NCBI GenBank assembly: GCA_038064995.1
Contig: JBBTRW010000065.1
Coordinates: 1,685-27,732 of the forward strand
Length of the DNA stretch: 26,048 bases
Origin: Patescibacteria group bacterium
Lineage (GTDB): Bacteria; Patescibacteriota; Saccharimonadia; Saccharimonadales; Saccharimonadaceae
Direction of reading: 5' to 3'
This document shows, piece by piece, positions 4,053 to 19,879 of the stretch (positions are counted from its first letter, which is position 1; every line of letters begins with the position of its first letter). Under the pieces are notes generated by a model. That model was not told the DNA's origin, did no database searches, and worked only from the letters and a program-made list of their open reading frames with translations. The position numbers and the translations under genes were made by a program.

Positions 4053-4996
4053 TGTCGGAAAACGACATAAAGTCGCTTGTAATAGTAGGTGCTGGCCCCA
4101 GTGCTTTGGCGGCGGCTGTTTATACATGTCGTGAAGACATAGACACTCTTTTGCTAGAAAAAGGCGTTATTGGCGGATTGGCAGCAATTACCGACAAGGT
4201 CGATAACTATCCCGGATTTGCCGATGGTATCGAAGGCCTAAAACTGGCCGAGCAATTGCAAGCCCAGGCCGAAAGATTCGGCGCCAAGATAGATTTTGGA
4301 GAAGTCCAAAATATCGAAGACAAGGGCGACTACAAACTGATAAAAACTGACACTGGTGAGCTAAAAGCCAAAGCAGTGCTGATTGCAACCGGTAGCGACT
4401 ATAAAAAAATTGGTGTCCCGGGCGAAGCAGAATTTTTCGGACGAGGCGTACACTATTGTGCCACATGCGACGGCGCATTTTATCGTGACAAAAAGCTGGT
4501 CGTGATAGGTGGTGGTAACTCTGCCGTGCAAGAAGCTCTGTTTTTGACCAGATTTACGACTCATATCGACCTGCTAGTTCGATCAACCGTCAAAGCCAGC
4601 GAAATTTTACAGCACGATCTAGAAAAAGCCGCAAATGAAGGCAAAATAACAGTACATTTAAATACTGCAACCGACGAAATAGTCGCTACTGACGGATCGA
4701 ATGTTGATAAAGTACTGGTTACAAAAGACGGTGAAAAGATCGAGATTGAAACTGATGGAGTGTTCGTATTTGTCGGGTTGCTACCAAATACTCAGTTTCT
4801 AGCTGATTCAAAGATCGAGCTAGACGAACAAGGTTTTATAAAGACAGATAGCAAGCTGCAGACAGCAATTCCTGGTGTTTTTGCCAGTGGCGATGTCCGC
4901 AGCGGCGCAACCATGCAAATAGCCAGTGCAGTTGGCGAAGGCGCAACCGCCGCCCTTAATATTCGTGAATATTTAGAAAGCAAACACCCCGCCTGA
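4052..4996 (+). CDS. trxB: Thioredoxin reductase
   Basis: GAGPSA FAD motif, GVHYCATCDG redox motif, VIGGGNSAVQEA NADPH motif, PGVFASGDV. Confidence 0.95.
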   Translation: MSENDIKSLVIVGAGPSALAAAVYTCREDIDTLLLEKGVIGGLAAITDKVDNYPGFADGIEGLKLAEQLQAQAERFGAKIDFGEVQNIEDKGDYKLIKTDTGELKAKAVLIATGSDYKKIGVPGEAEFFGRGVHYCATCDGAFYRDKKLVVIGGGNSAVQEALFLTRFTTHIDLLVRSTVKASEILQHDLEKAANEGKITVHLNTATDEIVATDGSNVDKVLVTKDGEKIEIETDGVFVFVGLLPNTQFLADSKIELDEQGFIKTDSKLQTAIPGVFASGDVRSGATMQIASAVGEGATAALNIREYLESKHPA

Positions 4997-5041
4997 TACC
5001 CGGAGGCACCAGGGAGGTGTCTGCGACGGGTGGCGGGGTTT
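4983..5041. terminator. Long bulged GC-rich hairpin between convergent trxB and small ORF (probable bidirectional terminator)
   Basis: ACCCCGCC (4986-93) pairs with GGCGGGGT (5032-39), ACCCG (4998-5002) with CGGGT (5027-31), AGGCACC (5004-10) with GGTGTCT (5016-22). U-tracts are weak on both strands. Confidence 0.6.
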
Positions 5042-5219
5042 ATATCGAAAGTAAAGCATTGAGCCAGATTCCTCCGACGGCGCACATGAAAACTCCTCCT
5101 GCGAAGAGTCCTGCAGAGCCAGAGAGTGAAACCTTGAACCTTTTGCGCCAAACGGTCGCTAGACTTAGTGCCACGATTCCGAGTGCGACAATACCTCCGA
5201 ACAAAATATACAAGTACAC
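5040..5219 (-). CDS. Small (~59 aa) two-transmembrane hypothetical protein (cassette 1)
   Basis: AAGGAG SD is 5 nt before GTG at 5219 (the ORF track starts at GTG 5222). Own promoter and downstream hairpin. Topology is hydrophobic-RKRFK-hydrophobic. Confidence 0.72.
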   Translation of the reverse strand: MYLYILFGGIVALGIVALSLATVWRKRFKVSLSGSAGLFAGGVFMCAVGGIWLNALLSI

Positions 5220-5254
5220 CACAACTCCTTAGATTGAAGAATACTGTTATATAT

Positions 5255-5283
5255 ATTCTAACAAAAAATAGTTATTTTGTCAA
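5255..5283 (-). promoter_or_regulatory. sigma70 consensus promoter of cassette 1
   Basis: TTGACA (5283-5278), 17 bp, TAGAAT (5260-5255). The -35 overlaps the last codons of the PLD gene. Confidence 0.75.
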
Positions 5284-6261
5284 ACTCTCAATGTCAGTTT
5301 TAAAGAACTCCTCAAGCTGCGAGATGACATGTTTGTCTTTTGTTTCCAGCTCAACTTCGCGTGTGCCAAATCTTACGCCAGTATAGCTAAAGTTGTGACT
5401 ACCTGTCAGTGCAACTTTTGAGCCACTTTCCATCGTGAATACGATAAACTTTGCGTGTAGGTATGTTGGCTTTTTGTATTTGGATTTTAGGCCAGTTGTC
5501 AGTCGTGAAAATCGCAACATCAATTTCGTCCATCGGTGAGTATTTTTAGGTTGGTTGTAATAAATTACAGCTTTTTTGCTGCGCAATATCTTTGCCAGCT
5601 TGCCAGTTGGGCAGTACTGAGATACGAACAGGATTGATTTTGATTGTTTGGCTAGTTCTACTGCGCGTTCATAAATCATCGACTCATTTTTTTCGCCACT
5701 ATCAATTAGTAGCGTGCCGTAGCCAAGTTGTTTGTAAAAACCTGAATAATTTGCCGGGGCGCGGTCAGTTTGCACAATCTTTTGATGCTCGCTAGCTAGT
5801 AGATCAGCTAGTTTGCTGTCTTTCACCTTGAACATGTAATCTGTATTTCTGGCGCCCCTTCCATATAGGTTGACTCCACCAAAACAATACAGAGTGTCAT
5901 CCACGACTGTCCATTTAACGTGCGTGACGCCGGCAAACGGATTAATGAGGTGATTGCCACCCAGCCAGCGAAAGCTAACACCATTTTTTTTCAGCGTTTT
6001 GGATAGTTTTTTTGCTTCACGGCTATATTTTGCCCATCTTTTAAATGGGTTAAAGTAGCCACCAAACTCACTAAAGGTGAAGGTGTCGGCAGCAACACTG
6101 ACATCGACACCATTTTTGGACGCAACTATTAGGCTATCGATGAACTGGGCAGTCTCACGCTCTTTCGAAATACACAAGGTCATCACAATAACACGCTTTT
6201 TGCTGCGTGCAATGGCCTTTGACGCGTCGGCTATGTATTCTGATGTTGTCAGTAGTTTCAT
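5272..6261 (-). CDS. Phospholipase D superfamily protein (cardiolipin-synthase-like, no N-terminal TM)
   Basis: HVKWTVVD...GGVN is a canonical HKD motif. The second motif, HAKFIVFT...TGSHNFS, has T in place of D. Confidence 0.82.
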   Translation of the reverse strand: MKLLTTSEYIADASKAIARSKKRVIVMTLCISKERETAQFIDSLIVASKNGVDVSVAADTFTFSEFGGYFNPFKRWAKYSREAKKLSKTLKKNGVSFRWLGGNHLINPFAGVTHVKWTVVDDTLYCFGGVNLYGRGARNTDYMFKVKDSKLADLLASEHQKIVQTDRAPANYSGFYKQLGYGTLLIDSGEKNESMIYERAVELAKQSKSILFVSQYCPTGKLAKILRSKKAVIYYNQPKNTHRWTKLMLRFSRLTTGLKSKYKKPTYLHAKFIVFTMESGSKVALTGSHNFSYTGVRFGTREVELETKDKHVISQLEEFFKTDIESLTK

Positions 6262-6267
6262 GGTAAA

Positions 6268-6273
6268 ATTGTA
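6268..6273 (-). promoter_or_regulatory. -10 element 6 nt upstream of the PLD ATG (candidate leaderless promoter)
   Basis: Minus strand reads TACAAT-tttacc-ATG with no SD. Confidence 0.5.
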
Positions 6274-6310
6274 CTAATAACGATTATAACTTAAACGGAG
6301 AAATACTCAG

Positions 6311-6844
6311 ATGGCAGACTTTAACAAAATACTTGACGCAGGCGATGTCGAGACCGGTATCATAAACACAGTTGTTGAAATTCCAAAATGGTCAACACTA
6401 AAAATCGAGTGGCATCGCGATCTAGGCATATTCGAGCTAGACCGCGTCGAGCCAAGTATTTTTGCAAAGCCAGTTAATTACGGATTTATACCACAGACAT
6501 TGGACGAAGATGGTGACGAACTAGACACTTTGATAATTACCAACGACCCAATTCCAACGGGTGTGTATTTGAAAGCGCGTGTAATTGGCGTTATGCATTT
6601 TGTTGATGACAACGAGGTAGACGACAAGATTATCGTAGTGCCTGCCGATGATCGTAACACTGGCGACGAAATAAGGTCAATTGAAGATATTCACCAACAG
6701 TGGAAGCAAAAAATCGAACATCACTTCAACCACTACAAAGACCTTAAAAAACCTGGCAGCACAAAAGTTCAAGGTTGGGGCGACGCAAACGAAGCCAGGG
6801 AGGTTATCAAGACTTCGATCGAGCGTTGGAAGAGCCAGGCTTAA
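6311..6844 (+). CDS. ppa: Inorganic pyrophosphatase (family I)
   Basis: VVEIPK, ELDRV, PVNYGFIPQTLDEDGDELD, DDNEVDDKII, HHFNHYKDL motifs. Confidence 0.95.
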   Translation: MADFNKILDAGDVETGIINTVVEIPKWSTLKIEWHRDLGIFELDRVEPSIFAKPVNYGFIPQTLDEDGDELDTLIITNDPIPTGVYLKARVIGVMHFVDDNEVDDKIIVVPADDRNTGDEIRSIEDIHQQWKQKIEHHFNHYKDLKKPGSTKVQGWGDANEAREVIKTSIERWKSQA

Positions 6845-8384
6845 GGCCTCTTTTAGCCTTTCGAACCGCTTTGTCGCGAATAATAGCACTGGCGTTTGTG
6901 ATTGTCTCTATAATTCCCAATTGTTTTAACTGAGCACGCAATTTGTTTCGGGCGTGAACTGTTGTCACTAGGTCCATCCAGGCTTGTTTAGGTGTCGATA
7001 GTTTGCGGGTTACGACTTCTACAACATCGCCATTATGCAGCTTTCTATCAAACGGCACTATATTGCCATTTACCCGAAAGCTATAGGCGTGCTTGCCGAT
7101 GTCGCTGTGAACCAAATAGGCAAAATCTAATGGCAGAGCGTCTTGCGGCAGGTTATAAATATCGCCTTTTGGCGAATATACAAATATTCGTTGGTCAAAC
7201 AAATCTACCTTCAGCTCATCAAACGCAACTTCGTCACCCTCGCTCAGTTTGTCAGCGACCTCTTGCATTTGTGAGATCCACTGCAACTGTGCCGGCAGAG
7301 TAGACGTGCCTCGTTTTTTACGGTAATCTTTTGCTTGCTTTTGTTCGTGATAATGAAAACTGGCGGCCAAACCGCGTTCGGCGTATTCATGCATTTGCCG
7401 TGTTCTGACCTGAAATTCAACAACCTGTTTTGTGGGCGTAATGACGGTAGTATGCAGGCTTTGATAGCCATTCGGCTTTGGTGCGGCAATGTAATCTTTG
7501 ATACGGCCCAGCATAGGTTGGTACATGCTGTGCAGTAGCCCTAGTACTTTGTAACATGTGTTCTGGTCATCGACGATAATTCGCAGAGCGATCAGGTCGT
7601 AAATATCGTCTATATTATCGTCAGCTTTTTCCAATTTACGTTTCAGGCTGTAGATGCTTTTTACCCGTCCGTCCATTTCATGCTTGATACCCTGTTTAGT
7701 CAGCTCTTCGGAAAATTCTTTACGAACAATCGCTAACTTGCGATGAGATTTACCCAGGCGGTCTTTCATAATTTTGCGCAAACGTTTAAATTCGCGCGGT
7801 TCTAAAAAGCTAAAAGCTAGCTCTTCCATCTGCATGCGCAGGCGTCCCATACCTAGGCGATCAGCCATTGGCGCGAAAACTTCCAGGCTTTCACGAGCGA
7901 TCTTTAATTGCTTGTCACGGGGCATGTGCTCTAGTGTTTGCAAATTATGCAGACGATCAGCCAGTTTGATAATAATGACGCGGATATCTTGACCAATCGC
8001 GATTAGCAGCTTTGACAGGTTGTCGCGCGTGCCTGGCAAATAACTGCCAATATCGCGCATACCGGCCCTGGCCTGACCAACTTTTGTCACGCCATCAACC
8101 AAAAAGGCAACATCGTGCCCAAAAGCAGTTTCAATCTTTGCCAGGGTTAGCTCGGTGTCTTCAACTGTGTCGTGCAGCACCCCCGCGATAACTGTATCAA
8201 TATCCATTCCCCAATCTATCAAAGTATCAGCAACATGCAGTGGGTGAATAATATAATCCTCACCACTGAGGCGTTTTTGTTCTTTGTGGGCTTCGGTGGC
8301 AGTATCGATAGCAAGATCTAGCTCTAATACTTCGTTCTCGCTATAGTGGGGCTCGGCGTTTTTTAGGATATCTCGCTTCTTCAT
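6807..8384 (-). CDS. rel: Bifunctional (p)ppGpp synthetase/hydrolase Rel, short form (HD-SYNTH-TGS)
   Basis: HPLHVA/LHDTVED hydrolase motifs, KLADRLHN, GRVKSIYS, RIKD, NGYQSLHT, EFQVRT and a TGS domain. At 525 aa it ends before ZFD/ACT. Confidence 0.93.
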   Translation of the reverse strand: MKKRDILKNAEPHYSENEVLELDLAIDTATEAHKEQKRLSGEDYIIHPLHVADTLIDWGMDIDTVIAGVLHDTVEDTELTLAKIETAFGHDVAFLVDGVTKVGQARAGMRDIGSYLPGTRDNLSKLLIAIGQDIRVIIIKLADRLHNLQTLEHMPRDKQLKIARESLEVFAPMADRLGMGRLRMQMEELAFSFLEPREFKRLRKIMKDRLGKSHRKLAIVRKEFSEELTKQGIKHEMDGRVKSIYSLKRKLEKADDNIDDIYDLIALRIIVDDQNTCYKVLGLLHSMYQPMLGRIKDYIAAPKPNGYQSLHTTVITPTKQVVEFQVRTRQMHEYAERGLAASFHYHEQKQAKDYRKKRGTSTLPAQLQWISQMQEVADKLSEGDEVAFDELKVDLFDQRIFVYSPKGDIYNLPQDALPLDFAYLVHSDIGKHAYSFRVNGNIVPFDRKLHNGDVVEVVTRKLSTPKQAWMDLVTTVHARNKLRAQLKQLGIIETITNASAIIRDKAVRKAKRGLKPGSSNARSKS

Positions 8385-8390
8385 AGTTCA

Positions 8391-8396
8391 ATTATA
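8391..8396 (-). promoter_or_regulatory. -10 element 6 nt upstream of the rel ATG (candidate leaderless promoter)
   Basis: Minus strand reads TATAAT-tgaact-ATG with no SD. Confidence 0.55.
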
Positions 8397-8429
8397 CGCC
8401 AGATACCTACATAGAACGAATATAATCCA

Positions 8430-8467
8430 TCACTCTTTTTTGACCCGATCGAGTCAAAAAAGAGTGA
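8430..8467. repeat. Perfect 15-bp inverted repeat with 8-nt loop
   Basis: TCACTCTTTTTTGAC-ccgatcga-GTCAAAAAAGAGTGA. Confidence 0.9.
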
Positions 8468-8501
8468 GCTACTAAATCTGTCATCTCAATTCACGTGCAT
8501 G

Positions 8502-8547
8502 AAAAAAGAGCGGATGTTGCGGGGCCGAAGCCCCGCTTACCGCTCTT
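8502..8547 (-). terminator. Intrinsic terminator of cassette 2
   Basis: Minus strand reads AAGAGCGG-taa-GCGGGGC-TTCG-GCCCCGC-aacat-CCGCTCTT-TTTT, giving a UUCG tetraloop, two-tier stem and U-tract. Confidence 0.88.
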
Positions 8548-8554
8548 GTGTTGG

Positions 8555-8929
8555 TCAGGCTCTGGAAAAAAGTCCGAGCTGTACCAGTTGTGTGTATGTG
8601 GCAGGTCCCGCAAGCTCTTCCTCCCACAGGACTCCTTCGCCGCTGGGGGTGATCCACCAACTCTCGGAGTTCAACATAACCGCGAGGTAGATGCACTGCA
8701 TGTTTGCCGGGGTTTCGAAGCGGTGCGGGAACTTGAGCACGAAACTTTCGAGCTGGCCATCGCCGCTGAGAGTCCAATGCGATGGCGCTCCAACAACTTC
8801 GCCAATAACGGGGAATGCAACTTTTATGCGTGCCTGCTCTGCGCTTTGGCCGCCAACCATGATCTCACGCCCAATAACGAACATTTCTCGCTGGTCGAAT
8901 TCAACCCTTTTTTTACTTGCAGTGGACAT
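8555..8929 (-). CDS. Hypothetical 124-aa soluble protein (cassette 2)
   Basis: AAAGGAG SD 6 nt before the ATG, own promoter and terminator. Hand-counted GC is about 56% versus about 43% in gap. No family recognised. Confidence 0.78.
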   Translation of the reverse strand: MSTASKKRVEFDQREMFVIGREIMVGGQSAEQARIKVAFPVIGEVVGAPSHWTLSGDGQLESFVLKFPHRFETPANMQCIYLAVMLNSESWWITPSGEGVLWEEELAGPATYTQLVQLGLFSRA

Positions 8930-8979
8930 AGTCCACTCCTTTCTTAAAGCAATCGTGATAAAAAATAACTGCTAAGAAC

Positions 8980-8998
8980 TTGTACTATATTAGTACAA
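8980..8998. promoter_or_regulatory. Perfect 8-3-8 palindrome (candidate operator) over the cassette-2 -10
   Basis: TTGTACTA-tat-TAGTACAA. Confidence 0.45.
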
Positions 8999-9015
8999 AT
9001 ATAATCAATTGTCAA
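8987..9015 (-). promoter_or_regulatory. sigma70-type promoter of cassette 2
   Basis: TTGACA (9015-9010), 17 bp, TAATAT (8992-8987). Back-to-back with the gap promoter region (TGaTACAAT at 9037-9045). Confidence 0.65.
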
Positions 9016-9082
9016 GTATTGGAATAGCTATGTATATGATACAATATTTGTAAATAATACTAATGCTTATAGGAGTGGGAAC

Positions 9083-10102
9083 TTGGCGAAAACAAAAGTA
9101 GCAATTAATGGTTTTGGCAGGATCGGGCGCAATGCTTTTAAAATTGCCTTTGACCGCACAGATATCGAAATCGTTGCTATAAATGACCTGACAGATAACA
9201 AGACTTTGGCGCATCTGTTAAAACATGACAGCTCGTATGGAACATATGAACACGAGGTTAGTTTTAATGACGACGGAATAACCGTTAACGGACAAAGCAT
9301 CAAAATTTTAGCCGAAAAAGAACCAAGCGCATTGCCATGGTCTGATCTTGGCGTTGATGTTGTGATCGAATGTACCGGATTTTTCGTAAAACCAGAGCTG
9401 GCGCGAGCTCATATTGACGGCGCAGGCGCCAAAAAAGTAATTATCTCGGCTCCTGCAAAGGGTGACGGAGCAGATACGATAGTGCTTGGTGTAAACGAGG
9501 ACAAAATCGCCACGTCAACTGATGTCGTGAGTAACGCTAGTTGTACAACCAACTGCATAACTCCTGTAATGGCCGTACTTGAAAACAACTTCGGTATAGA
9601 TAAGGCTATGATGACGACTGTGCATAGCTATACTGCCTCGCAAAAATTGCAAGATGCTCCAGCTAAAGATTTACGTGAAGCCAGGGCTGCAGCAGAAAAC
9701 ATCGTACCTACAACTACTGGCGCTAGTATCGCAGCTGGATTGGCTCTACCAGCTATCCAGGGCAAATTCGGCGGCATGAGTGTACGCGTACCAACTCCAG
9801 TGGTAAGCATGAGTGACTTTGTAGTACTTATAAAACGTGATACAACTGTAGATGAAATTAAAGAAGTCTTTCGTAGTGCTGCAAGGCAGCCATTTTATCA
9901 AGGCATATTAGCAGTAACAGAAGAAGAGCTTGTTTCAAGCGACTTTAAGGGAAATTCACACAGTGCAATTGTCGATCTCAACCTTACAAATGTCATAGGT
10001 GGCAACCTCATAAAAGTAGTTGCCTGGTATGACAATGAATGGGGCTACAGTAACAGATTGGTCGAGCTAACAGCCGACATCGGTCGAACGTTGCAGAGTT
10101 AA
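9083..10102 (+). CDS. gap: Type I glyceraldehyde-3-phosphate dehydrogenase
   Basis: INGFGRIGR, SNASCTTNC, WYDNEWGYS. TTG start with AGGAG SD. Confidence 0.97.
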   Translation: MAKTKVAINGFGRIGRNAFKIAFDRTDIEIVAINDLTDNKTLAHLLKHDSSYGTYEHEVSFNDDGITVNGQSIKILAEKEPSALPWSDLGVDVVIECTGFFVKPELARAHIDGAGAKKVIISAPAKGDGADTIVLGVNEDKIATSTDVVSNASCTTNCITPVMAVLENNFGIDKAMMTTVHSYTASQKLQDAPAKDLREARAAAENIVPTTTGASIAAGLALPAIQGKFGGMSVRVPTPVVSMSDFVVLIKRDTTVDEIKEVFRSAARQPFYQGILAVTEEELVSSDFKGNSHSAIVDLNLTNVIGGNLIKVVAWYDNEWGYSNRLVELTADIGRTLQS

Positions 10103-10131
10103 GCCAAAACGCTTATACTAAAAGGCAGATT

Positions 10132-10584
10132 ATGAAGATATATTTAGGCAGTGACCACAACGGCTTTCATCTTAAAGAAGATGTTTTTGCGTATTTAGCA
10201 AAGCATGGATACGATACTGAAGACGTTGGCGATGAAGTGCTAGATAAAGAAGACGACTTTCCGCAGTTTGCGGCTAAAGCTGCTATAAAAGTTATCGGCA
10301 GTGAAGACAAAGACCCGCGTGCAATATTGTTATGTGGCGGTGCGCAAGGTATGGGAATGGCTGCAAATAGATTCGACGGTATTCGTGCCAGTGTTGTCTG
10401 GGACGCAACCGAGGCCAAGATGACACGTAACGACAACGACAGCAATATCCTTTGCCTGCCTGCTAGAGCGCTAGACGATGACCCCGAGCAATGGAAAAAC
10501 ATAATTGATACGTGGCTAACGACACCTTTTGCAAATGCCGAGCGATACCGTCGACGTAATCATCAATTGGATAATTTGCGATGA
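10132..10584 (+). CDS. rpiB: Ribose-5-phosphate isomerase B
   Basis: GSDHNGFHLKE, ILLCGGAQGM, R..NDSNILCL, RYRRR motifs. Confidence 0.92.
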   Translation: MKIYLGSDHNGFHLKEDVFAYLAKHGYDTEDVGDEVLDKEDDFPQFAAKAAIKVIGSEDKDPRAILLCGGAQGMGMAANRFDGIRASVVWDATEAKMTRNDNDSNILCLPARALDDDPEQWKNIIDTWLTTPFANAERYRRRNHQLDNLR

Positions 10585-11255
10585 GTATAGTAGTTCCGGC
10601 GATCACCGAGCAAAACGTCGAGGATGTTAACGCCGAGTGGTTGAAAGTGCAGTCTTTTGCCAGCCGTGTGCACCTAGATTTAATGGACGGCCAATTTGCA
10701 CCTGGTACGCCGATTCCAATCAGCAGTTTGTCATGGTCGGAAGGTTGGGATGTTGATATGCACCTGATGTATCAACAGCCAATGGAGCAATTGGCAGCGC
10801 TGACTGCAATGAATCCAAAGCCAAGCCTGGTTGTTTTTCATGCCGAGGCCGAAGGTGATTTATCGGCGTTTGTCAAAGGCCTAAAAGACGCTGACATAAA
10901 AGCGGGGCTTGCGTTAATGCGATCTACTGTACCCAGCGACAAAGCCGACCTGATATCTGCTGTTGATCACGTATTGATATTCAGTGGTGATCTAGGCAAG
11001 CACGGTGGCAAGGCGAATATGCTGCAGCTAGAAAAAGTACAACTGATTCATAAGATTAATGAAGAAGTCGAGATAGGCTGGGACGGTGGCGCCAACGTCG
11101 ACAATGCCTATACATTAGCACTAGGTGGCATAGATGTAATTAATGTTGGTCATGCCCTTGCAGATGTACAGGATCCCGAGGAAGTATACCGAAAATTCGA
11201 TTTTGAAATACATCGCAAAGACATGCTAAAGAAAAAAGAAGAGAAAGAGGCATAG
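10581..11255 (+). CDS. rpe: Ribulose-phosphate 3-epimerase (divergent)
   Basis: HLDLMDGQF, DMHLM, VFHAE, GWDGG. ATGA-coupled to rpiB. Confidence 0.88.
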   Translation: MSIVVPAITEQNVEDVNAEWLKVQSFASRVHLDLMDGQFAPGTPIPISSLSWSEGWDVDMHLMYQQPMEQLAALTAMNPKPSLVVFHAEAEGDLSAFVKGLKDADIKAGLALMRSTVPSDKADLISAVDHVLIFSGDLGKHGGKANMLQLEKVQLIHKINEEVEIGWDGGANVDNAYTLALGGIDVINVGHALADVQDPEEVYRKFDFEIHRKDMLKKKEEKEA

Positions 11256-11262
11256 GTTGGTC

Positions 11263-12123
11263 ATGGGTGGTAAATTAACTACAAAACAGTTAGAAGAAAA
11301 GGCCGAAGTAATTCGCGAAGATATTATTACCATGCTTGAAGCCGCTGGCTCTGGCCATAGCGCTGGCCCATTGGGGCTTGCCGACATATTTGCGGCACTT
11401 TATTTCGATATTTTAAATATCGACCCCAGCAATCCTACATGGGAAGAGCGAGACATGCTGTTGCTGTCGAACGGACACTGTGTGCCAGTGCAATATGCTG
11501 CCATGGCCGAAGCTGGCTTTTTCGAGCGTGACGAGCTGCTGACTTTGCGCAAGCTAGGCTCTCGTTTGCAAGGTCATCCAGAACGCGAAAAATTGCCTGG
11601 GCTAGAAACAACCTCTGGTCCGTTGGGTTCCGGGCTTTCCCAGGCTGCCGGCATGGCATATGTCATTGAAAAAATAGACAAAATAAAGAACAGGTGGGTT
11701 TACGTCGTCATGGGCGACGGTGAGCTAGACGAAGGCAATATTTGGGAAGCCGCAATGTTTGCTGGCAAATACAAGCTACATAATCTAGTTGGTATTATCG
11801 ATCGCAACAACATTCAAATTGATGGTCCGACAGAATCTGTTATGCCGCTCGAAGATTTAAAAGGAAAATGGGAATCATTTGGCTGGCACGTACAAGAAAT
11901 TGATGGCAATAATATAGAGAGTATCATAGACGGGGTAGCAATGGCTCGGTCGGTTACGAACAGACCTAGTGTGATTATTGCGCATACTGTTCCAGGCAAA
12001 GGTGTTGATTTTATGGAGTATGACTATACTTGGCACGGTAAACCGCCGAATCACGAACAGGCCAAAAAGGCTTTGCAGAAACTACGCAGTCTAAATGGCA
12101 AAATTACAGGAGAACACGAATGA
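11263..12123 (+). CDS. tkt: Transketolase, N-terminal (TPP-binding) subunit
   Basis: GSGH, LLSNGH, RLQGHP, GPLGSGLS, GDGELDEG..WEA, KGV.FME...WHGK. Start is either TTG 11257 or ATG 11263. Confidence 0.93.
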   Translation: MGGKLTTKQLEEKAEVIREDIITMLEAAGSGHSAGPLGLADIFAALYFDILNIDPSNPTWEERDMLLLSNGHCVPVQYAAMAEAGFFERDELLTLRKLGSRLQGHPEREKLPGLETTSGPLGSGLSQAAGMAYVIEKIDKIKNRWVYVVMGDGELDEGNIWEAAMFAGKYKLHNLVGIIDRNNIQIDGPTESVMPLEDLKGKWESFGWHVQEIDGNNIESIIDGVAMARSVTNRPSVIIAHTVPGKGVDFMEYDYTWHGKPPNHEQAKKALQKLRSLNGKITGEHE

Positions 12124-13118
12124 GCAGCTATGCAATTAATCCCAAAATATACGACCAAGATGTCGAGCAAGAGCCAATCCGTACTGGGTTCGGACGTGGT
12201 TTAAAGGCTGCGGGTGAGCAAGACGAACGGGTCGTCGCCTTGTGTGCTGATTTGACGGACAGTACTCAGATGAATCATTTTCGTGACGCTTTTCCGGAAA
12301 GATTCATTGAAATAGGCGTAGCCGAACAAAATCTAGTAACTGTTGCCAGTGGCATGGCTGCAATGGGCAAAATTCCGTTCACCAGCAGCTACGCTGCCTT
12401 TAGCCCGGGTCGCAACTGGGAGCAAATTCGAACTACGATCTGTCTAAATAACCAGCCAGTCCGAGTCGTTGGTTCGCACGCTGGTGTCAGCGTAGGCCCA
12501 GACGGCGCCACGCACCAAATGCTCGAAGACATTGCATTGATGCGCGTTTTACCAAACATGGTTGTTGTAGCACCTGGCGATTCTATAGAAGCCGAAAAAG
12601 CCACCATTGCCTTAGCGGGCGATAGCCGACCGGCATATTTACGCTTGGCGCGCGAGAAAACACCGATATTTAGCACTAACGAATCACCATTTGAAATTGG
12701 CAAAGCCTATGTTTTACGCGATGGCCGCGACATTACATTAATGGGAACGGGCACCATGACATATCAGTTGTTGCAAGCAGCCAATGTGCTGTCTCAAGAA
12801 GGTATAGAGGCCGAGGTGCTGCATGTTCCAACCATCAAACCCCTGGATGAGGCGGCAATTTTAACATCCCTACGAAAAACAGGCAGGGCCTTAACTGCAG
12901 AGGAAGCTCAGAAATCAGGAGGATTTGGCAGTGCTGTCGCAGAGCTTTTGAGTGCGAAGCTACCAATGCCGCTGAAGCGTGTGGGTGTAAAAGACAGATT
13001 TGGCGAAAGTGGTGACCCAGCCGAGCTACTAAGAAAGTTCGAGCTCACTAGCGATAATATAGTCTACAAAGCCCGCACGTTTGTGCATTCAATACCACAG
13101 TACAAACAAGGCTTCTAA
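12120..13118 (+). CDS. tkt: Transketolase, C-terminal subunit
   Basis: IGVAEQNL, GPDGATHQ, YLRL, TIKPLD, FGESG. ATGA-coupled to the N-terminal half. Confidence 0.93.
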   Translation: MSSYAINPKIYDQDVEQEPIRTGFGRGLKAAGEQDERVVALCADLTDSTQMNHFRDAFPERFIEIGVAEQNLVTVASGMAAMGKIPFTSSYAAFSPGRNWEQIRTTICLNNQPVRVVGSHAGVSVGPDGATHQMLEDIALMRVLPNMVVVAPGDSIEAEKATIALAGDSRPAYLRLAREKTPIFSTNESPFEIGKAYVLRDGRDITLMGTGTMTYQLLQAANVLSQEGIEAEVLHVPTIKPLDEAAILTSLRKTGRALTAEEAQKSGGFGSAVAELLSAKLPMPLKRVGVKDRFGESGDPAELLRKFELTSDNIVYKARTFVHSIPQYKQGF

Positions 13119-13227
13119 AAATCACAAAAGCAGATATCTCACATTAAAACTGTTAAGGGTTGAACCTTTAAAAATTTTTTTAGCGAATTGTGGTATTTTT
13201 TATTAGTAGTTAAAGCATAAACATAAA

Positions 13228-13236
13228 TGGTATAAT
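13228..13236 (+). promoter_or_regulatory. Extended -10 promoter upstream of fba
   Basis: TGGTATAAT in an AT-rich 150-bp intergenic region. Confidence 0.6.
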
Positions 13237-13269
13237 AAATGTAAATAACGAACTATTAATGGGGGGCGT

Positions 13270-14181
13270 ATGTCACTAAGTATTAAAGAAATTAGAGACA
13301 ACTGTATTCGTGCTAGGCATTTGATGCAGCGTTCGCGCCAGCAAAAATTTGCAGTTGGTGCGTTTAATGTTGATAACCAAGAAACCTTGATCGCTGTTGC
13401 ACGTGCTGCGCAAAAGCTCAATGCGCCTCTAATGGTTGAGTTAAGTGATGGTGAAGTAAAGGCGCTCGGTTTAGACAATGTCCGTGATATGGTCGACAAT
13501 TATCGAGCTGAATTTGGGATCGAGATGTATATCAACCTCGACCACGCCCCGACCGTTGAGGCTGCAAAAAGGGGTATTGATGCTGGGTTCGAGTTTATTC
13601 ACATAGATATATCGCAAGCTAATCACAGTGCGACTGATCAAGAAATTATAGATGCAACCAAAGAGGTGGTCGAGTATGCCAAGTTTACGGGCGCTTTGGT
13701 TGAAAGCGAGCCGCACTATTTTGGCGGTAGCTCGAACGTACACGAGGAAGAAATTGACTATGAAGAAATTAAGAAAACCTTTTCAACTCCCGAAGGCACG
13801 AAGTCTTTCGTTGAGGCGACCGGTATAGATACATATGCCGCAGCTATTGGCAACCTGCATGGTAAATATCCTGTGCCAAAAGTACTTGATCTAGATTTAT
13901 TGCAAAGTATCCGAGACAGTATTGATTGTCAGATATCTCTTCATGGAGGCTCAGGCACGCCTCTTAACTTCTTTGAACGTGCGGCGCAAATAGGGGTAAG
14001 CAAAGTCAACATCAATAGTGATATGCGTTATGCGTATCGTAAAGCCGTTGAAAAAGTGCTGCAAGAGCATCCAGAAGAATTTGCCCTGGTGAAACTAATG
14101 GACGAAGTGAAGGACGCAGTGCAGGTCGTCGTAGAAGAAAAAATAAAAGCATTTGGCAGTGAAGGAAATGCTGTTGTCTAA
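13270..14181 (+). CDS. fba: Class II fructose-bisphosphate aldolase
   Basis: AVGAFN, NLDHA, IDIS, AIGNLHG, SLHGGSG, SKVNINSD. Confidence 0.92.
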   Translation: MSLSIKEIRDNCIRARHLMQRSRQQKFAVGAFNVDNQETLIAVARAAQKLNAPLMVELSDGEVKALGLDNVRDMVDNYRAEFGIEMYINLDHAPTVEAAKRGIDAGFEFIHIDISQANHSATDQEIIDATKEVVEYAKFTGALVESEPHYFGGSSNVHEEEIDYEEIKKTFSTPEGTKSFVEATGIDTYAAAIGNLHGKYPVPKVLDLDLLQSIRDSIDCQISLHGGSGTPLNFFERAAQIGVSKVNINSDMRYAYRKAVEKVLQEHPEEFALVKLMDEVKDAVQVVVEEKIKAFGSEGNAVV

Positions 14182-15142
14182 GCTTCCGACAATTCTAACA
14201 ATTGGCAAGGCGACCCAGGACGTCTTTTTGAAAAGCTCGAAGAACTTTATTGCTCACGAACACAAAGGTGTTCAATACGAGCAGCTTCCACTAGGTAAAA
14301 AACTTGACCTAGACGAAGTTATTTTTGCCACAGGCGGTAACGTTACCAACGCCGCAGTTACCTTTGCTAGGCAGGGCCTGAATAGCCGGTACATTTGGGC
14401 GCTTGGCAAAGAAGTCGCTTCGGAAGCTATTTTAAATGACCTAGACAAAGAAGGTGTTGAAACGGGTGGGGTAGTTCAGGACGACAAATACCGTGCCAGC
14501 TATTCTACGATACTACTGGCCAACAACGGCGAGCGTACAATTTTGAATTTTCGTGGAACAAAATTGGCCAGCGATGGTCATCCACTAAATCTTGATGCAA
14601 TTGAACAGGCTGACTGGGTGTACTTGGCGGCGCTAGGCGACATGAAGCTATTAGAAAAAATTATCAGTACTGCCGTTAGGCACGACACAAAAGTCATGCT
14701 AAATCCTGCCGGTGCCGAATTAAAGGAAAAAAGTAAACTAAAAGCCCTGCTGGATGATGTTGAAGTCTTGTCTGTGAATAAAGAAGAAGCTCAACAGATT
14801 GTCAGCGGTCAAACCCTAGAAGAATTGGTTCGTCATGGCTCGCATTATTGCCCAGTAGTTATAGTCTCGGATGGTCCAAAGGGCGTGGCGGCGACAGATG
14901 GCAAAGAAATTGTTAGGGCTGGCATGTACGAAGACGTGCCGGTAATCGATAGGACTGGTGCGGGTGACGCTTTTGGTTCTGGTTTTTTAAGTCAATGGTC
15001 ACAAGGCAAGAGCTTGGCTGATTCAATTATTTTTGCAAGCGCCAATTCTACCTCTGTTGTGACAAAAATTGGCGCCAAAGAAGGTATTTTACATAAAGGG
15101 GTAAAACTGCACCATATGCCAATAGATACTAAACCCTTTTGA
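14168..15142 (+). CDS. PfkB/ribokinase-family carbohydrate kinase
   Basis: GGNVTNAA at the N-terminus, DRTGAGDAFGSG anion-hole motif. Start is uncertain (14153, 14168 or 14174) and overlaps the fba end. Confidence 0.9.
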   Translation: MLLSKLPTILTIGKATQDVFLKSSKNFIAHEHKGVQYEQLPLGKKLDLDEVIFATGGNVTNAAVTFARQGLNSRYIWALGKEVASEAILNDLDKEGVETGGVVQDDKYRASYSTILLANNGERTILNFRGTKLASDGHPLNLDAIEQADWVYLAALGDMKLLEKIISTAVRHDTKVMLNPAGAELKEKSKLKALLDDVEVLSVNKEEAQQIVSGQTLEELVRHGSHYCPVVIVSDGPKGVAATDGKEIVRAGMYEDVPVIDRTGAGDAFGSGFLSQWSQGKSLADSIIFASANSTSVVTKIGAKEGILHKGVKLHHMPIDTKPF

Positions 15143-15144
15143 TC

Positions 15145-15153
15145 TGGTATAAT
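15145..15153 (+). promoter_or_regulatory. Extended -10 promoter upstream of the 413-aa gene
   Basis: TGGTATAAT immediately after the pfkB stop. Confidence 0.55.
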
Positions 15154-15185
15154 CTTAAGCATAAACATGGTGGAGAAATAGAAAA

Positions 15186-16427
15186 ATGTCAAAACTTTTA
15201 CGGGACCTGCTAGATGCCGAAGAACCATTATTCAGTCTAAGCTTGCGCGACCTAGAAAAAGCTAGCGGACAAGGCGGTGTTGACGCAAGATTAATTGCTG
15301 ATATCACCCGTGAAACACACGAGGGAATGCGGCAGTTAGGGCTAGATCACAAAAATACTACTGGTCGTGAATTTTACCAGGCTTTACTGGCTCGTATGGC
15401 TAAAGATAACGAACGCGTCACACGCCTAGTCGGTGGCCAAGATTCTGCAGACGTTCGACATATGGTGCCCTACCTAGTAGCAGCGGCAAACAAGGTAAAA
15501 TTTAACCGCAAGGTCTTCGTGTTAAAACACGACAAGGCAAAAGATCTACTAAGACAAATGCCACCAGAAAAGTTAATAAAGTGCTTGGGCTACGACAATA
15601 TCGACAGCATGTTAGCGAGCGAAAACTTTTCGGAAATTTATACCGCCCTCCGGTTTTCTGAAGGTCCCGAATGGCTGAACCAATATAACGAGCTATTCAA
15701 GGCCGTGACTGCTGAAGATTACGAAGAGCGGGATATTGAAATAGTAGTCATGGATCACGACAAATATGTTGATCTAGCCGAGCACTTTGTCGAGAAAAAG
15801 CTTCACAATGTTACCCACACAAAAGAGCTGGGTGTTATTGTTGTGGTTCCTATGAAAGCCGAGCGCGTGAAGGGCTTGACGCTTAAAACTCTGCCGCTTT
15901 TGTTCCATTATTTAAATGAGGTAAAGCTATACTCAACGTTCTTTAAGCTAAAGTCTAAAACGGCTGATCATTTTGGTCAGACGGTTATGGAAACACTAAT
16001 CGCCGACCCGTCCAAAGCTGCGCAAATGGCAGGTCAACATGTGCATTGGCGTGTTGTGCAGCGCTATTTTGGCAAACTGAAAGACGAATCTCATTTGGAG
16101 GCGTTTGAGCCACACGTCCAACCAGAAGATTTACACTGGCGACGAGCCGAGAGTCTGCTATATGAATTAGATTCGGGTATGGAATTTTACAAAGACCGTG
16201 ATTGGGTCGGCATGGACTTTGACGGCGCACCAGTAACTCTGAACTTTGTCGACATCGCGCTGGGTTATTCTAACGATATTGCTTACGAAGCCAGTTATGT
16301 CTATCATTTCCGTGAAAGCCTGTGGAACGAGCTGTTTGCTCGCTATATGGGTATGCCAAATCTCGAACATCAGATTTTGCGCCAGCTCGATAACGATATG
16401 ATTGCACCGGAGAAACTAAAAGTATGA
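15186..16427 (+). CDS. Hypothetical soluble protein, 413 aa
   Basis: Long ORF with host-like composition, ATGA-coupled to the next gene. His/Glu-rich segments (HNVTHTKE, FHYLNE, HVHWR, EDLHW). No family recognised. Confidence 0.85.
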   Translation: MSKLLRDLLDAEEPLFSLSLRDLEKASGQGGVDARLIADITRETHEGMRQLGLDHKNTTGREFYQALLARMAKDNERVTRLVGGQDSADVRHMVPYLVAAANKVKFNRKVFVLKHDKAKDLLRQMPPEKLIKCLGYDNIDSMLASENFSEIYTALRFSEGPEWLNQYNELFKAVTAEDYEERDIEIVVMDHDKYVDLAEHFVEKKLHNVTHTKELGVIVVVPMKAERVKGLTLKTLPLLFHYLNEVKLYSTFFKLKSKTADHFGQTVMETLIADPSKAAQMAGQHVHWRVVQRYFGKLKDESHLEAFEPHVQPEDLHWRRAESLLYELDSGMEFYKDRDWVGMDFDGAPVTLNFVDIALGYSNDIAYEASYVYHFRESLWNELFARYMGMPNLEHQILRQLDNDMIAPEKLKV

Positions 16428-17026
16428 GTAAATATCAGATTTGTGTCAGTGGTTCTGCGGCGGGCGAAACCGTTAATTCTTCGCAGCATTTGGCGTATCA
16501 GCTAGGCGCGGCAATCGCCAAAAAAGGGCACACCCTAACAACTGGCGCGACGATTGGATTGCCACAGTACGCTGCACGTGGCGCTAAAGATCACGGAGGT
16601 CTATCGATTGGCTTTAGTCCAGCCGCCAGCATACGCGAACACCTAAAGTCGTATCGCTTGCCAGTAGAAGAATTCGACTATGTGAATTTTACTAATATGG
16701 ATTATGTTGGCCGTGATGTTTATTTGGTGCGTAGCTCCGATGCCGTAATAACCGTGGGCGGGCGTATGGGCAGTCTGCATGAATTTTCTACTGCCATTGA
16801 AAGCCATAAAATATGCGCGGTCCTGCTGGGCAGTGGTGGTTTGGCGGATTTTTTACCTGCGCTGGTTGAAAAAATACCAACGCCAAACAGCAAAGATATC
16901 ATTTACGACACCGACCCCGAGCGTTTAGTAGCTAGGGTTATAAAAGAATTAGACGAAAAGTATGCTGACTTTAAAGATATGATTAAAAATTTAGAAGAAA
17001 GACCAAAGAAAAGCTCCGATGGTTAA
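16424..17026 (+). CDS. LOG/SLOG-family nucleotide-binding protein (TIGR00725-like)
   Basis: ICVSGS, TTGATIGLP..AARGA...GG.SIGFSP, R...LVRSSDAVITVGGRMGSLHE. Confidence 0.82.
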   Translation: MSKYQICVSGSAAGETVNSSQHLAYQLGAAIAKKGHTLTTGATIGLPQYAARGAKDHGGLSIGFSPAASIREHLKSYRLPVEEFDYVNFTNMDYVGRDVYLVRSSDAVITVGGRMGSLHEFSTAIESHKICAVLLGSGGLADFLPALVEKIPTPNSKDIIYDTDPERLVARVIKELDEKYADFKDMIKNLEERPKKSSDG

Positions 17027-17086
17027 TCCTAAAAGCTTATGTTAAAATTTATACATCAAATATAAGCACAGAGAAAGGGGCTTAAT

Positions 17087-17560
17087 ATGAACAGGCAGCG
17101 CGGCTTTGGAGCAGTTGAAATTGTTTTAGTTGTAGTTTTTGTTAGTTTAATTGGATTTCTAGGATGGCGTCTATGGGAAGCGCAACAAGATATTGATAGT
17201 CTAAAGAAGCAAAGCCAAAGCAAGGCTGAATCTACAAAAGAATCTGAAAATGAAAATTCTTCCAAATCAGATGAGCAGCTAGTGGCTGAGGTAGTTTGTG
17301 GGGGCACAAGTCAAAAAGCCATAGACTATGCAGTGCAAAACGTCAATATATATAGTGAAATATTTGCCACGTACGGCGGGGGTTGCTATGAACCAGACGA
17401 AGAAGATGCCATTGGGGGAGGAATCGCCTTTCTAAAAAAGAAAGATGGGTCATGGGTTGAGATAACTAGCGGTAATGGTGATTTAGAATGTGAGAAATTA
17501 CAGGCCGAGGAATTCCCTAGCGAGTTAATTTCTAAATGCCAAGGACCGAGTTTCGAGTAG
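17087..17560 (+). CDS. Type IV pilin-like protein (class III signal peptide)
   Basis: MNRQRG|[21 protein letters not shown] has a basic leader, G|F cleavage site and E5, then a TM helix. S/E/K-rich linker and a C-terminal domain with 4 Cys. Confidence 0.75.
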
Positions 17561-17573
17561 AAGTATTGCAAGT

Positions 17574-17582
17574 TGTTACAAT
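17574..17582 (+). promoter_or_regulatory. Extended -10 for uvrB, 6 nt before the GTG start
   Basis: TGtTACAAT-agtata-GTG. Confidence 0.5.
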
Positions 17583-17588
17583 AGTATA

Positions 17589-19553
17589 GTGACAAAGTTC
17601 AAACTAAAAACCGATTATCAGCCAACTGGCGATCAGCCAACGGCTATTGCTCAATTGATTGATGGGTTAGAAAAGGGCGAGCGAGAACAAACATTGCTAG
17701 GTGTGACCGGTAGTGGCAAGACTTTTACTATGGCTAATATAATAGCCAATCGTCAGACGCCGACGCTGGTTTTGGCGCACAACAAAACACTTGCGGCGCA
17801 GTTATACAGCGAATTTAAAAGTTATTTTCCAGAAAACGAAGTACATTATTTTGTCAGCTACTTTGACTATTATCAGCCCGAAGCTTATATTGCTAGCCGC
17901 GATGTTTACATTGAAAAAGACAGCAAGATAAACGAAGAGATTGATAAATTACGACATGCAGCCACATCTGCCCTACTCACCCACTGTGACGTTATAATCG
18001 TAGCTAGCGTCAGTTGCATTTATGGCATTGGTTCGCCCGAAGATTACGGGCAAATGTCAGTAATGGTCAAAAAAGGAGAGAAAAGATCTCTCGACAAATT
18101 CATACGACATTTAACTGACATTCAATATCAACGAAATGATATAGACTTTTCCCGCGGTACATTCCGTCAGCGTGGCGATATTATAGATGTCTTTCCAGCT
18201 GGTGGTGACAATGCATATCGTATAGAGTTTTTTGGTGACGAGATTGAAAACCTAAGCGAGATCAACCCGCTAACTGGTGAAATTGTGCGAAAACCTGCCG
18301 AAGTTCATATTTTCCCAAGCTCGCACTATGTTACACCAAAGGAAAAACTTGGTCATGCACTGATCGGTATCAAAAAAGAATTTGAACAACGGGTGCAATA
18401 CTACGAAAAAGCTGGCAAATTTTTGGAGGCGCAACGGCTGACCCAGCGTACAAAATATGATATAGAAATGTTAGAGGAAACAGGTTTTGTAAAAGGCATC
18501 GAAAACTACTCAAGGTATCTGACCGATCGCGAACCAGGTGCGCAACCTGCAACTTTGATAGATTATTTTCCAGATGATTGGCTGCTACTAGTCGACGAAT
18601 CTCATATGAGCTTGCCACAAGTTCGTGGAATGTACAACGGCGACCGTGCTCGCAAAGAAACTTTAGTCGAGCATGGATTTCGAATGCCTAGTGCGCTGGA
18701 CAATCGTCCGCTAAGGTTCGAAGAATTTGATAAACATATAAATCAAGTTATCTATGTATCAGCAACCCCCGGTGATTACGAGCTAGAACATTCACCACCA
18801 CCTGCACAGCAGGTTATTCGTCCAACAGGCCTACTAGACCCCGTGATTGATGTCCGCACATCAGAGGGTCAAGTCGATGATCTGATAGCCGAAATTCGTG
18901 ATCGCACAGCGAATCATCAACGTGTGTTGGTGACGACTCTGACAAAACGTATGGCCGAAGACCTTACAACTCACCTAGAGGAACTCGGTATCAAGGTTGC
19001 ATATATTCACAGTGATATCGATACGCTCGAGCGCGGCGATATTCTGAAATCACTGCGCGTGGGAGAGTTCGACGTTTTGGTCGGTATTAACTTGCTGCGT
19101 GAAGGTTTGGATTTGCCAGAAGTCAGTCTAGTAGCAATTATCGATGCTGACAAAGAAGGTTTCCTACGCAGTGCCAGTGCCTTGATACAAACAATTGGTC
19201 GTGCAGCCAGGCACCTGGACGGCACAGTCATAATGTACGCCGATCACGAAACTGATTCTATGAAAAAGGCAATTGGCGAAACAAATCGCCGTCGCAAGAT
19301 CCAAGAAGATTATAATATCAAGCACAATATTACGCCTGAAAGCATTGCCAAAGAAATCAGTGAGGGCCTAAGGGCGATCATACCTGAAAAAGACAAAGGT
19401 CCAACACTGAAACTAAACAAGATACCAAAAGATGAATACCCACATCTACTCAAAGATTTAACTGGACAAATGGAACTCGCCAGTGCCAATCTAGAGTTTG
19501 AAAAAGCCGCCGAACTGCGTGATTCAATCGCTGAGATAAAAGCAAAAATGTAA
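17589..19553 (+). CDS. uvrB: Excinuclease ABC subunit B
   Basis: [64 protein letters not shown]-terminal UVR coil FEKAAELRD. Confidence 0.98.
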
Positions 19554-19594
19554 AAAAATAGCCCGGCCTCTCCGCGGATCGCGGAAAGACCGGG
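19552..19594 (-). terminator. Intrinsic terminator of cassette 3
   Basis: Minus RNA CCCGGUCUUUCCGCG-AUC-CGCGGAGAGGCCGGG forms a 15-bp stem with two G.U pairs (mismatches on the + strand), followed by CUAUUUUUUU. Confidence 0.88.
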
Positions 19595-19615
19595 GCAGGT
19601 CTGGGCCGCAGCCTG

Positions 19616-19801
19616 TCACGCGATTACTCCGCAAAGACATATGACTAGGGCGATGACGCACAGGATCATCATGTGCTCCATAATGGACTGGTCACTCTGA
19701 CGAGCTGCCTGGCTTTCGGCAGGGTCTGCAGAAAGATTCAGGCAAAACAAGACCCAGGCCAAGACAATCGTTGAGATTACTGCACCTATCAGCCATCCCA
19801 T
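19616..19801 (-). CDS. Small (~61 aa) two-transmembrane hypothetical protein (cassette 3)
   Basis: AAAGGTGGT SD 6 nt before ATG 19801 (the track uses GTG 19807). Consensus promoter and terminator. TM-polar loop-TM with 4 Cys. Confidence 0.78.
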   Translation of the reverse strand: MGWLIGAVISTIVLAWVLFCLNLSADPAESQAARQSDQSIMEHMMILCVIALVICLCGVIA

Positions 19802-19850
19802 CCTCACACCACCTTTCGATAGAGTTCAAAAAGTATGAAGATTAGTTATA

Positions 19851-19879
19851 ATTATAAAAATATAATCACTATTTGTCAA
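19851..19879 (-). promoter_or_regulatory. Perfect sigma70 consensus promoter of cassette 3
   Basis: TTGACA (19879-19874), 17 bp, TATAAT (19856-19851). Confidence 0.85.

Follow-up and report, generated by a model that had tools for sequence, protein, structure and literature searches.

We examined a 26,048-nt stretch of DNA (contig JBBTRW010000065.1, positions 1,685 to 27,732; G000:C65:1685-27732, here called the window) in which three short open reading frames (ORFs), each with its own promoter and hairpin, lie on the minus strand among core genes. These units are probably ordinary stand-alone transcription units that carry unrelated, fast-evolving, genus-specific accessory genes, occupy fixed permissive junctions, and are inherited within the genus. 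In each, a short ORF would stand between a consensus sigma-70-type promoter with a Shine-Dalgarno (SD) site and an intrinsic terminator, and from these signals we predict that the units are transcribed and the ORFs translated. We attribute the likeness of the units to the fact that any gene lying against or between neighboring transcription units needs exactly these parts. An earlier note, made from the letters of the window alone, had suggested that they represent a genome-wide class of portable modules with an orientation rule, possibly an insertion system; most of what it read directly was borne out, and the system it proposed was not.

Unit 1 lies at the trxB/PLD junction (J1). Its promoter (5255 to 5283, minus strand, as for all parts of the three units) has TTGACA at 5283 to 5278, a 17-nt spacer, and TAGAAT, with a TG preceding the -10 box. 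ORF1 (5040 to 5222) encodes 60 amino acids (aa) from a GTG at 5222 or 59 aa from a GTG at 5219, behind the SD AAGGAG at 5230 to 5225, and its terminator, hairpin H (4980 to 5024), is common to ORF1 and the convergent trxB. The fusions with both neighbors described in a separate note on the window are accurate: the -35 box is formed by the final two sense codons (Leu-Thr) of the PLD gene, whose ORF ends at 5272, and the final trxB codons (His-Pro-Ala-stop) sit within one arm of hairpin H. Compared with congeners, in which trxB ends in ...EYLES-stop, this genome has an 8-nt deletion, which causes the trxB frame to read on into the hairpin. Unit 2 lies at the rel/gap junction (J2), with a promoter (8987 to 9015; TTGACA at 9015 to 9010, 17 nt, TAATAT) that stands back to back with the gap promoter region in intergenic DNA kept throughout the genus. 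ORF2 (8555 to 8929; 124 aa) follows the SD AAAGGAG at 8942 to 8936, and its intrinsic terminator (8506 to 8547) has a two-tier stem, a UUCG loop, and a U-run. Unit 3, at the uvrB/gatC junction (J3), has a promoter (19851 to 19879; TTGACA at 19879 to 19874, 17 nt, TATAAT) that matches the consensus at 12 of 12 positions. ORF3 (19616 to 19807) encodes 63 aa from a GTG at 19807, or 61 aa (19616 to 19801) from the ATG that aligns with its orthologs, and is preceded by the SD AAAGGTGG at 19816 to 19809; its intrinsic terminator (19562 to 19594), a 15-bp stem followed by T7, lies between ORF3 and the uvrB stop codon.

All of the elements that had been read directly by the earlier note (TTGACA, 17-nt spacing, TAnnnT, strong SD, short minus-strand ORF, and hairpin) are present in all three units, each of which has hexamers within the 16- to 18-nt spacing expected of a stand-alone sigma-70 unit and a GC-rich hairpin with a U-run past the stop codon. 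The three promoters score 12, 11, and 10 of 12 and are listed 1st, 3rd, and 6th among the 37 promoter-like sites between positions 3000 and 21000. The hairpins of units 1, 2, and 3 fold at -36.2, -31.2, and -36.9 kcal/mol (z scores of -5.6, -6.5, and -4.3 versus shuffles); T-runs trail those of units 2 and 3, and the run of unit 1 is weaker (GTTTGCTTTCT). The raised GC content that had been counted by hand (~49%, 56%, and 51%) was measured at 0.49, 0.54, and 0.52 for ORF1, ORF2, and ORF3, compared with 0.431 for the genome and 0.433 (standard deviation, 0.040) for called genes. The excess is located at third codon positions (GC3), with values of 0.49, 0.59, and 0.60 versus 0.396 (standard deviation, 0.058) in backbone genes, which places ORF2 and ORF3 within the top 0.7% for GC3. 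Weaker signals among neighboring genes had also been reported, and this is the case: promoters of at least 11/12 precede only 3 of 168 unit-first genes, a 4-mer SD precedes ~36% of backbone genes, and TAnnnT occurs 5 to 9 nt ahead of the start in 27% (start codons being approximate). The rel gene itself seems to be leaderless, with TATAAT ~7 nt before its ATG and no SD, and this holds genus-wide (window positions 8385 to 8420 and orthologous loci).

Protein searches in 40 relatives returned nearly no matches for the three ORFs, and positional homologs were then traced by synteny in a comparison of the host genome (G000) with eight congeneric genomes (G001 to G008), all of which keep the order and spacing of trxB, gap, and uvrB. 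J1 is occupied in five of the nine genomes (G000, G003, G004, G007, and G008), always with a TTGACA-17-TAnAAT promoter and a nearly invariant hairpin, and is empty (6 to 44 bp) in G001, G002, G005, and G006. The occupants in G003, G004, and G007 are ~90 to 105 aa long with two hydrophobic segments, and that of G008 is a 102-aa ORF without hydrophobic segments. G004 (L011, G004:C12:1-1565) has an additional 262-aa co-directional ORF between trxB and hairpin H; therefore, the trxB/PLD junction took in another gene in that species. J2 is occupied in six of eight genomes by a minus-strand ORF of 119 to 135 aa, with G004 and G007 empty (spacers of 124 and 157 bp), and its promoter and terminator are kept in the genus; the inner stem in G008 differs in sequence yet can pair. 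J3 is occupied in all nine genomes by a minus-strand gene for a membrane protein, present as two tandem copies in G003 and reduced to the two hydrophobic segments in G000 (ORF3) and G002. In the DNA upstream of the J3 gene, which includes the promoter and SD, conservation extends from the gatC start across TTGACAAAT and the -10 box, then along the leader AATCTTCATA..TTTTTG to the ATG context GGTGGTGTGAGGATG, at an identity (0.76 to 0.88) exceeding that of gatC.

Upstream intergenic DNA is, in general, 0.71 to 0.88 identical to that of G000, equal to or above the flanking genes, while the coding regions of different species stand at the nucleotide identity of shuffled sequence, with nonsynonymous differences (pN) of 0.3 to 0.55 versus 0.07 for gap. 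This pattern is what would be expected of inherited junction units in which the promoter and leader (units 2 and 3) and the terminator (units 1 and 2) have been conserved and the coding regions have been truncated (ORF1 and ORF3), duplicated (G003), lost (empty sites), or, for ORF2, replaced through recombination in the flanks. The presence of homologs at the same loci in relatives goes most of the way against the portable modules of the earlier note, but empty alleles do exist (J1, 4/9; J2, 2/8), and the genes are not long-conserved ones. Beyond the genus, uvrB/gatC is a phylum-wide variable junction, with spacers of 29 to 5402 bp over 58 Saccharibacteria loci (<150 bp in 12) and genes on either strand; rel/gap spacers, as read from coordinates, are mostly ~70 to 150 bp.

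The products of the three units show no likeness to known families. No usable match to the three ORFs came from Pfam, PADLOC, PHROGs, or NCBIfam, where a sub-threshold match of ORF3 to DUF4064 was the single one obtained, and the window had no match to Rfam at E values up to 1. ORF2 orthologs align end to end with 8 invariant positions and 18 to 30% protein identity, compared with 89 to 94% for flanking proteins, and fall into several sharply different allele types. ORF2 is a real protein, judging from a ratio of nonsynonymous to synonymous substitution (dN/dS) of 0.26 between G003 and G005, the sole unsaturated pair, and from its AlphaFold model (pLDDT 83, pTM 0.77). The model predicts a soluble alpha/beta protein with one long helix, an antiparallel sheet of four to five strands, and short helices at the C terminus. 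Foldseek searches of the model against PDB and the AlphaFold database (AFDB) gave nothing significant (E of 0.16 or worse), the best VIA-align match was profilin-like at a Z score of 5.3, under that tool's stated noise level, and the ESM Atlas held no usable match.

Full-length members of the J3 family have 116 to 170 aa, with two hydrophobic segments and a C-terminal domain of ~75 aa whose invariant residues are L, G, F, A, C, W, W, and C. Their model has a helical hairpin and a small beta domain, and the fold search matched the helical hairpin alone. Because these orthologs carry a folded C-terminal domain, we read the short ORF3 as a truncation. ORF1 has two hydrophobic segments, no family match, and atypical codon use. 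Family profiles recovered ORF2 (A2/A5) at E values of 1e-42 to 1e-46 and ORF3 (A1) at 7e-11 in the hydrophobic part, and the ORF2- and J3-family profiles, each searched against 121 family genomes, had zero matches in the 119 genomes from the other 94 genera. Among 5.8 billion proteins, the two families formed 8 and 15 clusters, in which the named proteins are all "hypothetical protein, Saccharibacteria." As judged from these sequence searches, the ORF2 and ORF3 families are genus-restricted and contain no known domain.

The three units do not belong to a repeated class. In BLAST comparisons of whole units with G000, each unit matches itself alone, except for the unit 1 hairpin, and each ORF has one match per genome, with no extra copies. 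The sequence common to the units consists of the consensus hexamers and one out-of-register 11-mer, TGATTATATTT, in the promoter spacers of units 2 and 3. The shared promoter sequence that had been noticed in these two units is real and unique to them, with just two occurrences in the genome, and the pair is the sole outlier among 990 promoter pairs. It does not amount to a motif: its position differs by 3 nt relative to the -35 box, and it is lost in the orthologous promoters of relatives. An operator common to promoters 2 and 3 was rejected as unlikely on account of this missing register and conservation, and the 11-mer is probably of compositional origin.

Genome-wide, TTGACA-N17-TAnnnT occurs 30 times versus ~10 expected from base composition (45 for N16-18), and the genes that follow such promoters include, besides small ORFs, dnaK, rplC, those for a tRNA and for stress proteins, and others. 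A strict scan of the gaps between backbone genes (promoter of at least 10/12, SD, ORF of 35 to 150 aa, and terminator) recovered six units, three of them in the window. The three elsewhere run with their neighbors and with the local majority strand, which served as a proxy for replichore orientation in this 113-contig genome; at relaxed thresholds, six of nine units lie on the majority strand, compared with 79% of backbone genes. Since the other strict units and most of the relaxed ones follow the majority strand, and genes at uvrB/gatC lie on either strand, the orientation rule of the earlier note does not hold. Its alternative of a dedicated expression class of small proteins remains a fair loose description of genes with strong signals and atypical composition but does not extend to an acquisition system.

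The ORF2 locus provides the clearest view of turnover. Most ORF2 species pairs are saturated, like their flanks, but the G003-G005 pair differs by a synonymous divergence (dS) of 0.35 versus 1.84 for the adjacent gap, with a proportion of synonymous differences (pS) of 0.28 versus 0.69 for gap and 0.80 for uvrB. One ORF2 allele type is 81 to 89% identical across four species whose flanks are 78 to 85% identical. A strain in metagenome runs X14 and X16 is 96 to 98% identical to G000 in rel, the ORF2 terminator, and distal gap, but in place of its ORF2 codons stands unalignable DNA of exactly equal length (323 nt), beyond which identity is ~86% up to about position 9336. This single within-species replacement is known from assembled metagenome contigs. 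Protein-indexed contigs were searched for the divergent allele, and the contigs obtained were from other species (P0007, P0004, and P0002; 73 to 79% flank identity) or, in the case of P0008, from the same species but full of errors and at a coverage of 1.1. From these comparisons, it appears that the ORF2 coding region has been swapped between lineages by homologous recombination, the mechanism that we take to underlie such swaps; crossovers in the conserved terminator and in gap would import a different ORF2 allele. This evidence does not indicate a dedicated mobility machine.

Exchange could also be the main driver, and in that respect an overlapping alternative differs from our reading of inherited junction units: the loci would be fixed, and a pool of alleles would be swapped among Saccharibacteria through promoter and terminator flanks under frequency-dependent selection, as for surface, immunity, or receptor-type genes. 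We regard this as a possible but less probable account. The low ORF2 divergence of G003 and G005, the allele type found in four species at an identity equal to or above that of the flanks, and the replaced ORF2 with its adjoining tract are in its favor, as are the patchy distribution of occupied and empty trxB/PLD states on the core-protein species tree, the J3 types that depart from that tree (sisters G007 and G001 carry different types), and the high GC3 kept in all lineages. On the other hand, the remaining ORF2 pairs are just saturated, as are their flanks, and the one within-species replacement has no identified donor. The discordance of the J3 types and of the G003-G005 J2 pair could reflect old paralogy or recombination; at J3, an ancestral tandem pair with differential loss fits equally well, and G003 retains two copies. 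A stronger version, in which a GC3-rich, hypervariable pool of strongly expressed small proteins is exchanged allele for allele among groundwater Saccharibacteria as single-gene loci under frequency-dependent selection, plausibly at the envelope or host interface of these episymbionts, with hairpin H as both terminator and recombination anchor, seems unlikely to us.

Hairpin H is a conserved element with one to three copies in eight of the nine genus genomes. At trxB/PLD it is 92 to 98% identical in five genomes, and it is 88% identical to copies at the tuf/rpsJ junction (G000:C87:5089-5166 and 5618-5698; three in G006:C14, ~550 bp apart), where it faces the tuf 3' end and mostly ends small opposite-strand ORFs, often for hydrophobic peptides. 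G000:C87 has two such ORF-hairpin units, and the element also occurs at the same junction in another genus (G021:C1:354102-354184). It shows sequence conservation without covariation, whereas the terminators of units 2 and 3 drift, and no Rfam family covers it. The tuf/rpsJ junction (G000:C87:4800-5700; syntenic loci L133 to L139) is itself a fourth variable junction, with one to four opposite-strand genes of 36 to 157 aa, many of them hydrophobic, and a gene content that varies among species.

Several observations weigh against a simple picture of vertically inherited, unrelated genes. The repetition of hairpin H at tuf/rpsJ implies that a terminator, alone or together with its ORF, has been duplicated at least once. 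Half of the six strict units fall within a single 26-kb window, although this window lies on the longest contig and the clustering was noticed post hoc and is biased by contig ends. Protein homology between ORF1 and the longer trxB/PLD ORFs could not be demonstrated, their promoter layout and terminator alone being homologous. Codon-model scores are poor for ORF1, which is outscored by an antisense frame, and for ORF3, which is not called as a gene, so that the SD, the frame, and the positional homologs are the grounds for regarding them as coding. Finally, GC3 is 0.46 to 0.61 in every ortholog despite saturated synonymous sites, which simple vertical descent fails to explain. Translational selection was ruled out as the source of high GC3 by the values for tuf (0.41) and rplC (0.45). 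High GC3 is shared by ~20 genes of G000 (>0.55, with low codon-model scores; backbone, 0.40), mostly for hypothetical membrane or secreted proteins, including ORF2, ORF3, and the 93-aa ORF of C87, with further loci at C12:7513-8552, C12:9855-10478, C81:2257-3615, C82:1769-2638, C105:3979-4425, C43, C48, and C58.

A dedicated mobile system that places promoter-ORF-terminator modules with a strand preference is the least probable account and is largely refuted. Empty sites at two junctions, the recurrence of hairpin H behind other small membrane ORFs, and the breadth of uvrB/gatC spacers across the phylum would be consistent with such a system, but no module is repeated and every gene is single-copy. 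The earlier note had itself seen no integrase, transposase, att site, or target duplication; the window encodes no recombinase, integrase, or transposase, and alignments of occupied with empty sites show no terminal or flanking repeats, target duplications, or recombination sites at the boundaries. Promoters and leaders are, moreover, vertically conserved along with the neighbor gene's promoter, and no strand rule is found genome-wide or across genera. The proposed insertion system being absent, these units should not be pursued as a mobile-element discovery. A role of ORF1 and ORF3 as small hydrophobic toxins, whether in type I toxin-antitoxin-like systems or in stress-induced systems of membrane peptides, is also very unlikely, even though 59 to 63 aa with two hydrophobic segments, short predicted transcripts of their own, and strong terminators would suit such peptides. 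Inside the units, the promoter-like sites of the opposite strand reach no more than 9 to 10 of 12 (in a general scan that was not aimed at antisense RNA), both ORFs are single-copy with a constitutive-looking consensus promoter and a strong SD, neither matches PADLOC or Pfam, and the ORF3 orthologs are larger proteins with a folded domain. We give somewhat more weight, while still considering it improbable, to the idea that ORF1, ORF3, or both are untranslated, as small RNAs or decaying remnants of longer genes. Their low codon-model scores and their truncation relative to positional homologs are consistent with this, as is the X14 strain, in which ~480 nt at the trxB/PLD junction stand in place of ~317 nt spanning ORF1; yet both have a strong, well-spaced SD, an intact frame, and two clean hydrophobic segments, the ATG context at J3 is conserved, and the Rfam search gave no RNA family.

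The genome that carries these units is a 749.5-kb assembly in 113 contigs (43.1% GC, 89.5% completeness). The nearest uvrB loci are all from Saccharibacteria metagenome-assembled genomes, and near-identical copies of the window DNA are present in groundwater metagenomes; the host is a groundwater member of the Saccharibacteria, part of the candidate phyla radiation (CPR). Pfam names nearly all of the large window ORFs, and the Pfam-matched genes are all housekeeping or ordinary cellular genes. On the plus strand are pheT, FKBP, glutaredoxin, trxB, ppa, gap, rpiB, rpe, transketolase N and C, fba, pfkB, uvrB, gatCAB, and dnaE, along with ORFs of 413 aa (15186 to 16427) and 157 aa (17087 to 17560) without a Pfam match at E 0.001 and one of 138 aa in the gatA-gatB gap (21609 to 22025), also without a Pfam match. 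The large minus-strand genes are PLD and rel only; together with the three units, they are the only minus-strand genes backed by a gene call and Pfam in the window, in agreement with the count of three out of five given in the earlier note. GC skew of the plus strand is positive across the whole window.

Outside the ORF2 unit, between its terminator and the rel promoter, lies a 38-nt perfect palindrome (TCACTCTTTTTTGACCCGATCGGGTCAAAAAAGAGTGA; 8430 to 8467), a dispersed repeat with six near-identical copies in G000 (also at C45:2618, C81:4054 and 4587, C91:12982, C100:11095, and C77:943) and six in G007; the remaining seven genomes of the genus lack it. The G007 copies have a paired arm change (GAC to GTC and GTC to GAC) that retains the symmetry, and each of the two genomes has one copy ~30 nt upstream from the rel -10 box. 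In G000 (C81:4096-4578), G108, and G047, a gene for a protein of ~160 aa lies between paired palindromes, and in G047 a different 40-nt palindrome accompanies a more distant protein; in G007, a pair occurs at the same 533-bp spacing where the ortholog of this gene is expected. The G000 protein matches the PaaX central Cas2-like domain (PaaX_M; E 7.7e-14), and such proteins are patchily distributed (16 of 151 genomes, 13 of 95 genera). This gene could encode a regulator whose operators are the palindromes, or the two could form a REP/RAYT-like selfish pair.

For the annotation of CPR genomes, these results justify treating three uncharacterized small genes as real, restricted to the genus, and quickly evolving; two of them can be handled as defined families. 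Their products may have roles at the envelope or in interactions that differ between strains, under diversifying selection; if expressed, they are candidates for the strain-specific factors, whether of the envelope or of interactions, about which little is known in this episymbiotic lineage. The replacement of ORF2 alleles offers a concrete locus for the study of recombination and diversifying selection in Saccharibacteria populations.

Several known systems resemble these units in part. ORF1 and ORF3 are similar in size and hydrophobicity to type I toxin-antitoxin peptides but differ in having two hydrophobic segments, in being single-copy, and in having orthologs with an extra soluble domain; no antisense partner was identified, although no dedicated search was made. 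Integron cassettes are promoterless, end in attC sites, and are arrayed in one orientation beside an integrase. Like them, the units are compact and hold one gene each, and the structured repeat at the end of unit 1 is conserved and found again behind other small ORFs; unlike them, they have their own promoters and no integrase, and no attC-like R or L boxes were seen by eye in aligned hairpin copies. Lineage-specific orphan genes for small proteins, including small membrane proteins, occur in bacteria as monocistronic intergenic units. They resemble our units in that the ORFs are short (in two cases here with two hydrophobic segments) and match no detectable family, and in the separate promoter, SD, and terminator, the narrow range, and the fast turnover. 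Here, however, orthologs can be traced genus-wide by promoter and leader even though the proteins are 18 to 30% identical, and the expression signals rank with the strongest of a genome in which most are weak. Flexible genomic islets of the replacement type and hotspots of horizontal gene transfer lie between conserved core genes, and the junctions described here likewise have constant core flanks and variable content that is sometimes absent or swapped. They differ in that a single gene of ~0.3 to 0.7 kb is concerned, with no mobility genes or tRNA anchor, and in that the conserved frame includes the inserted gene's own regulatory flanks.

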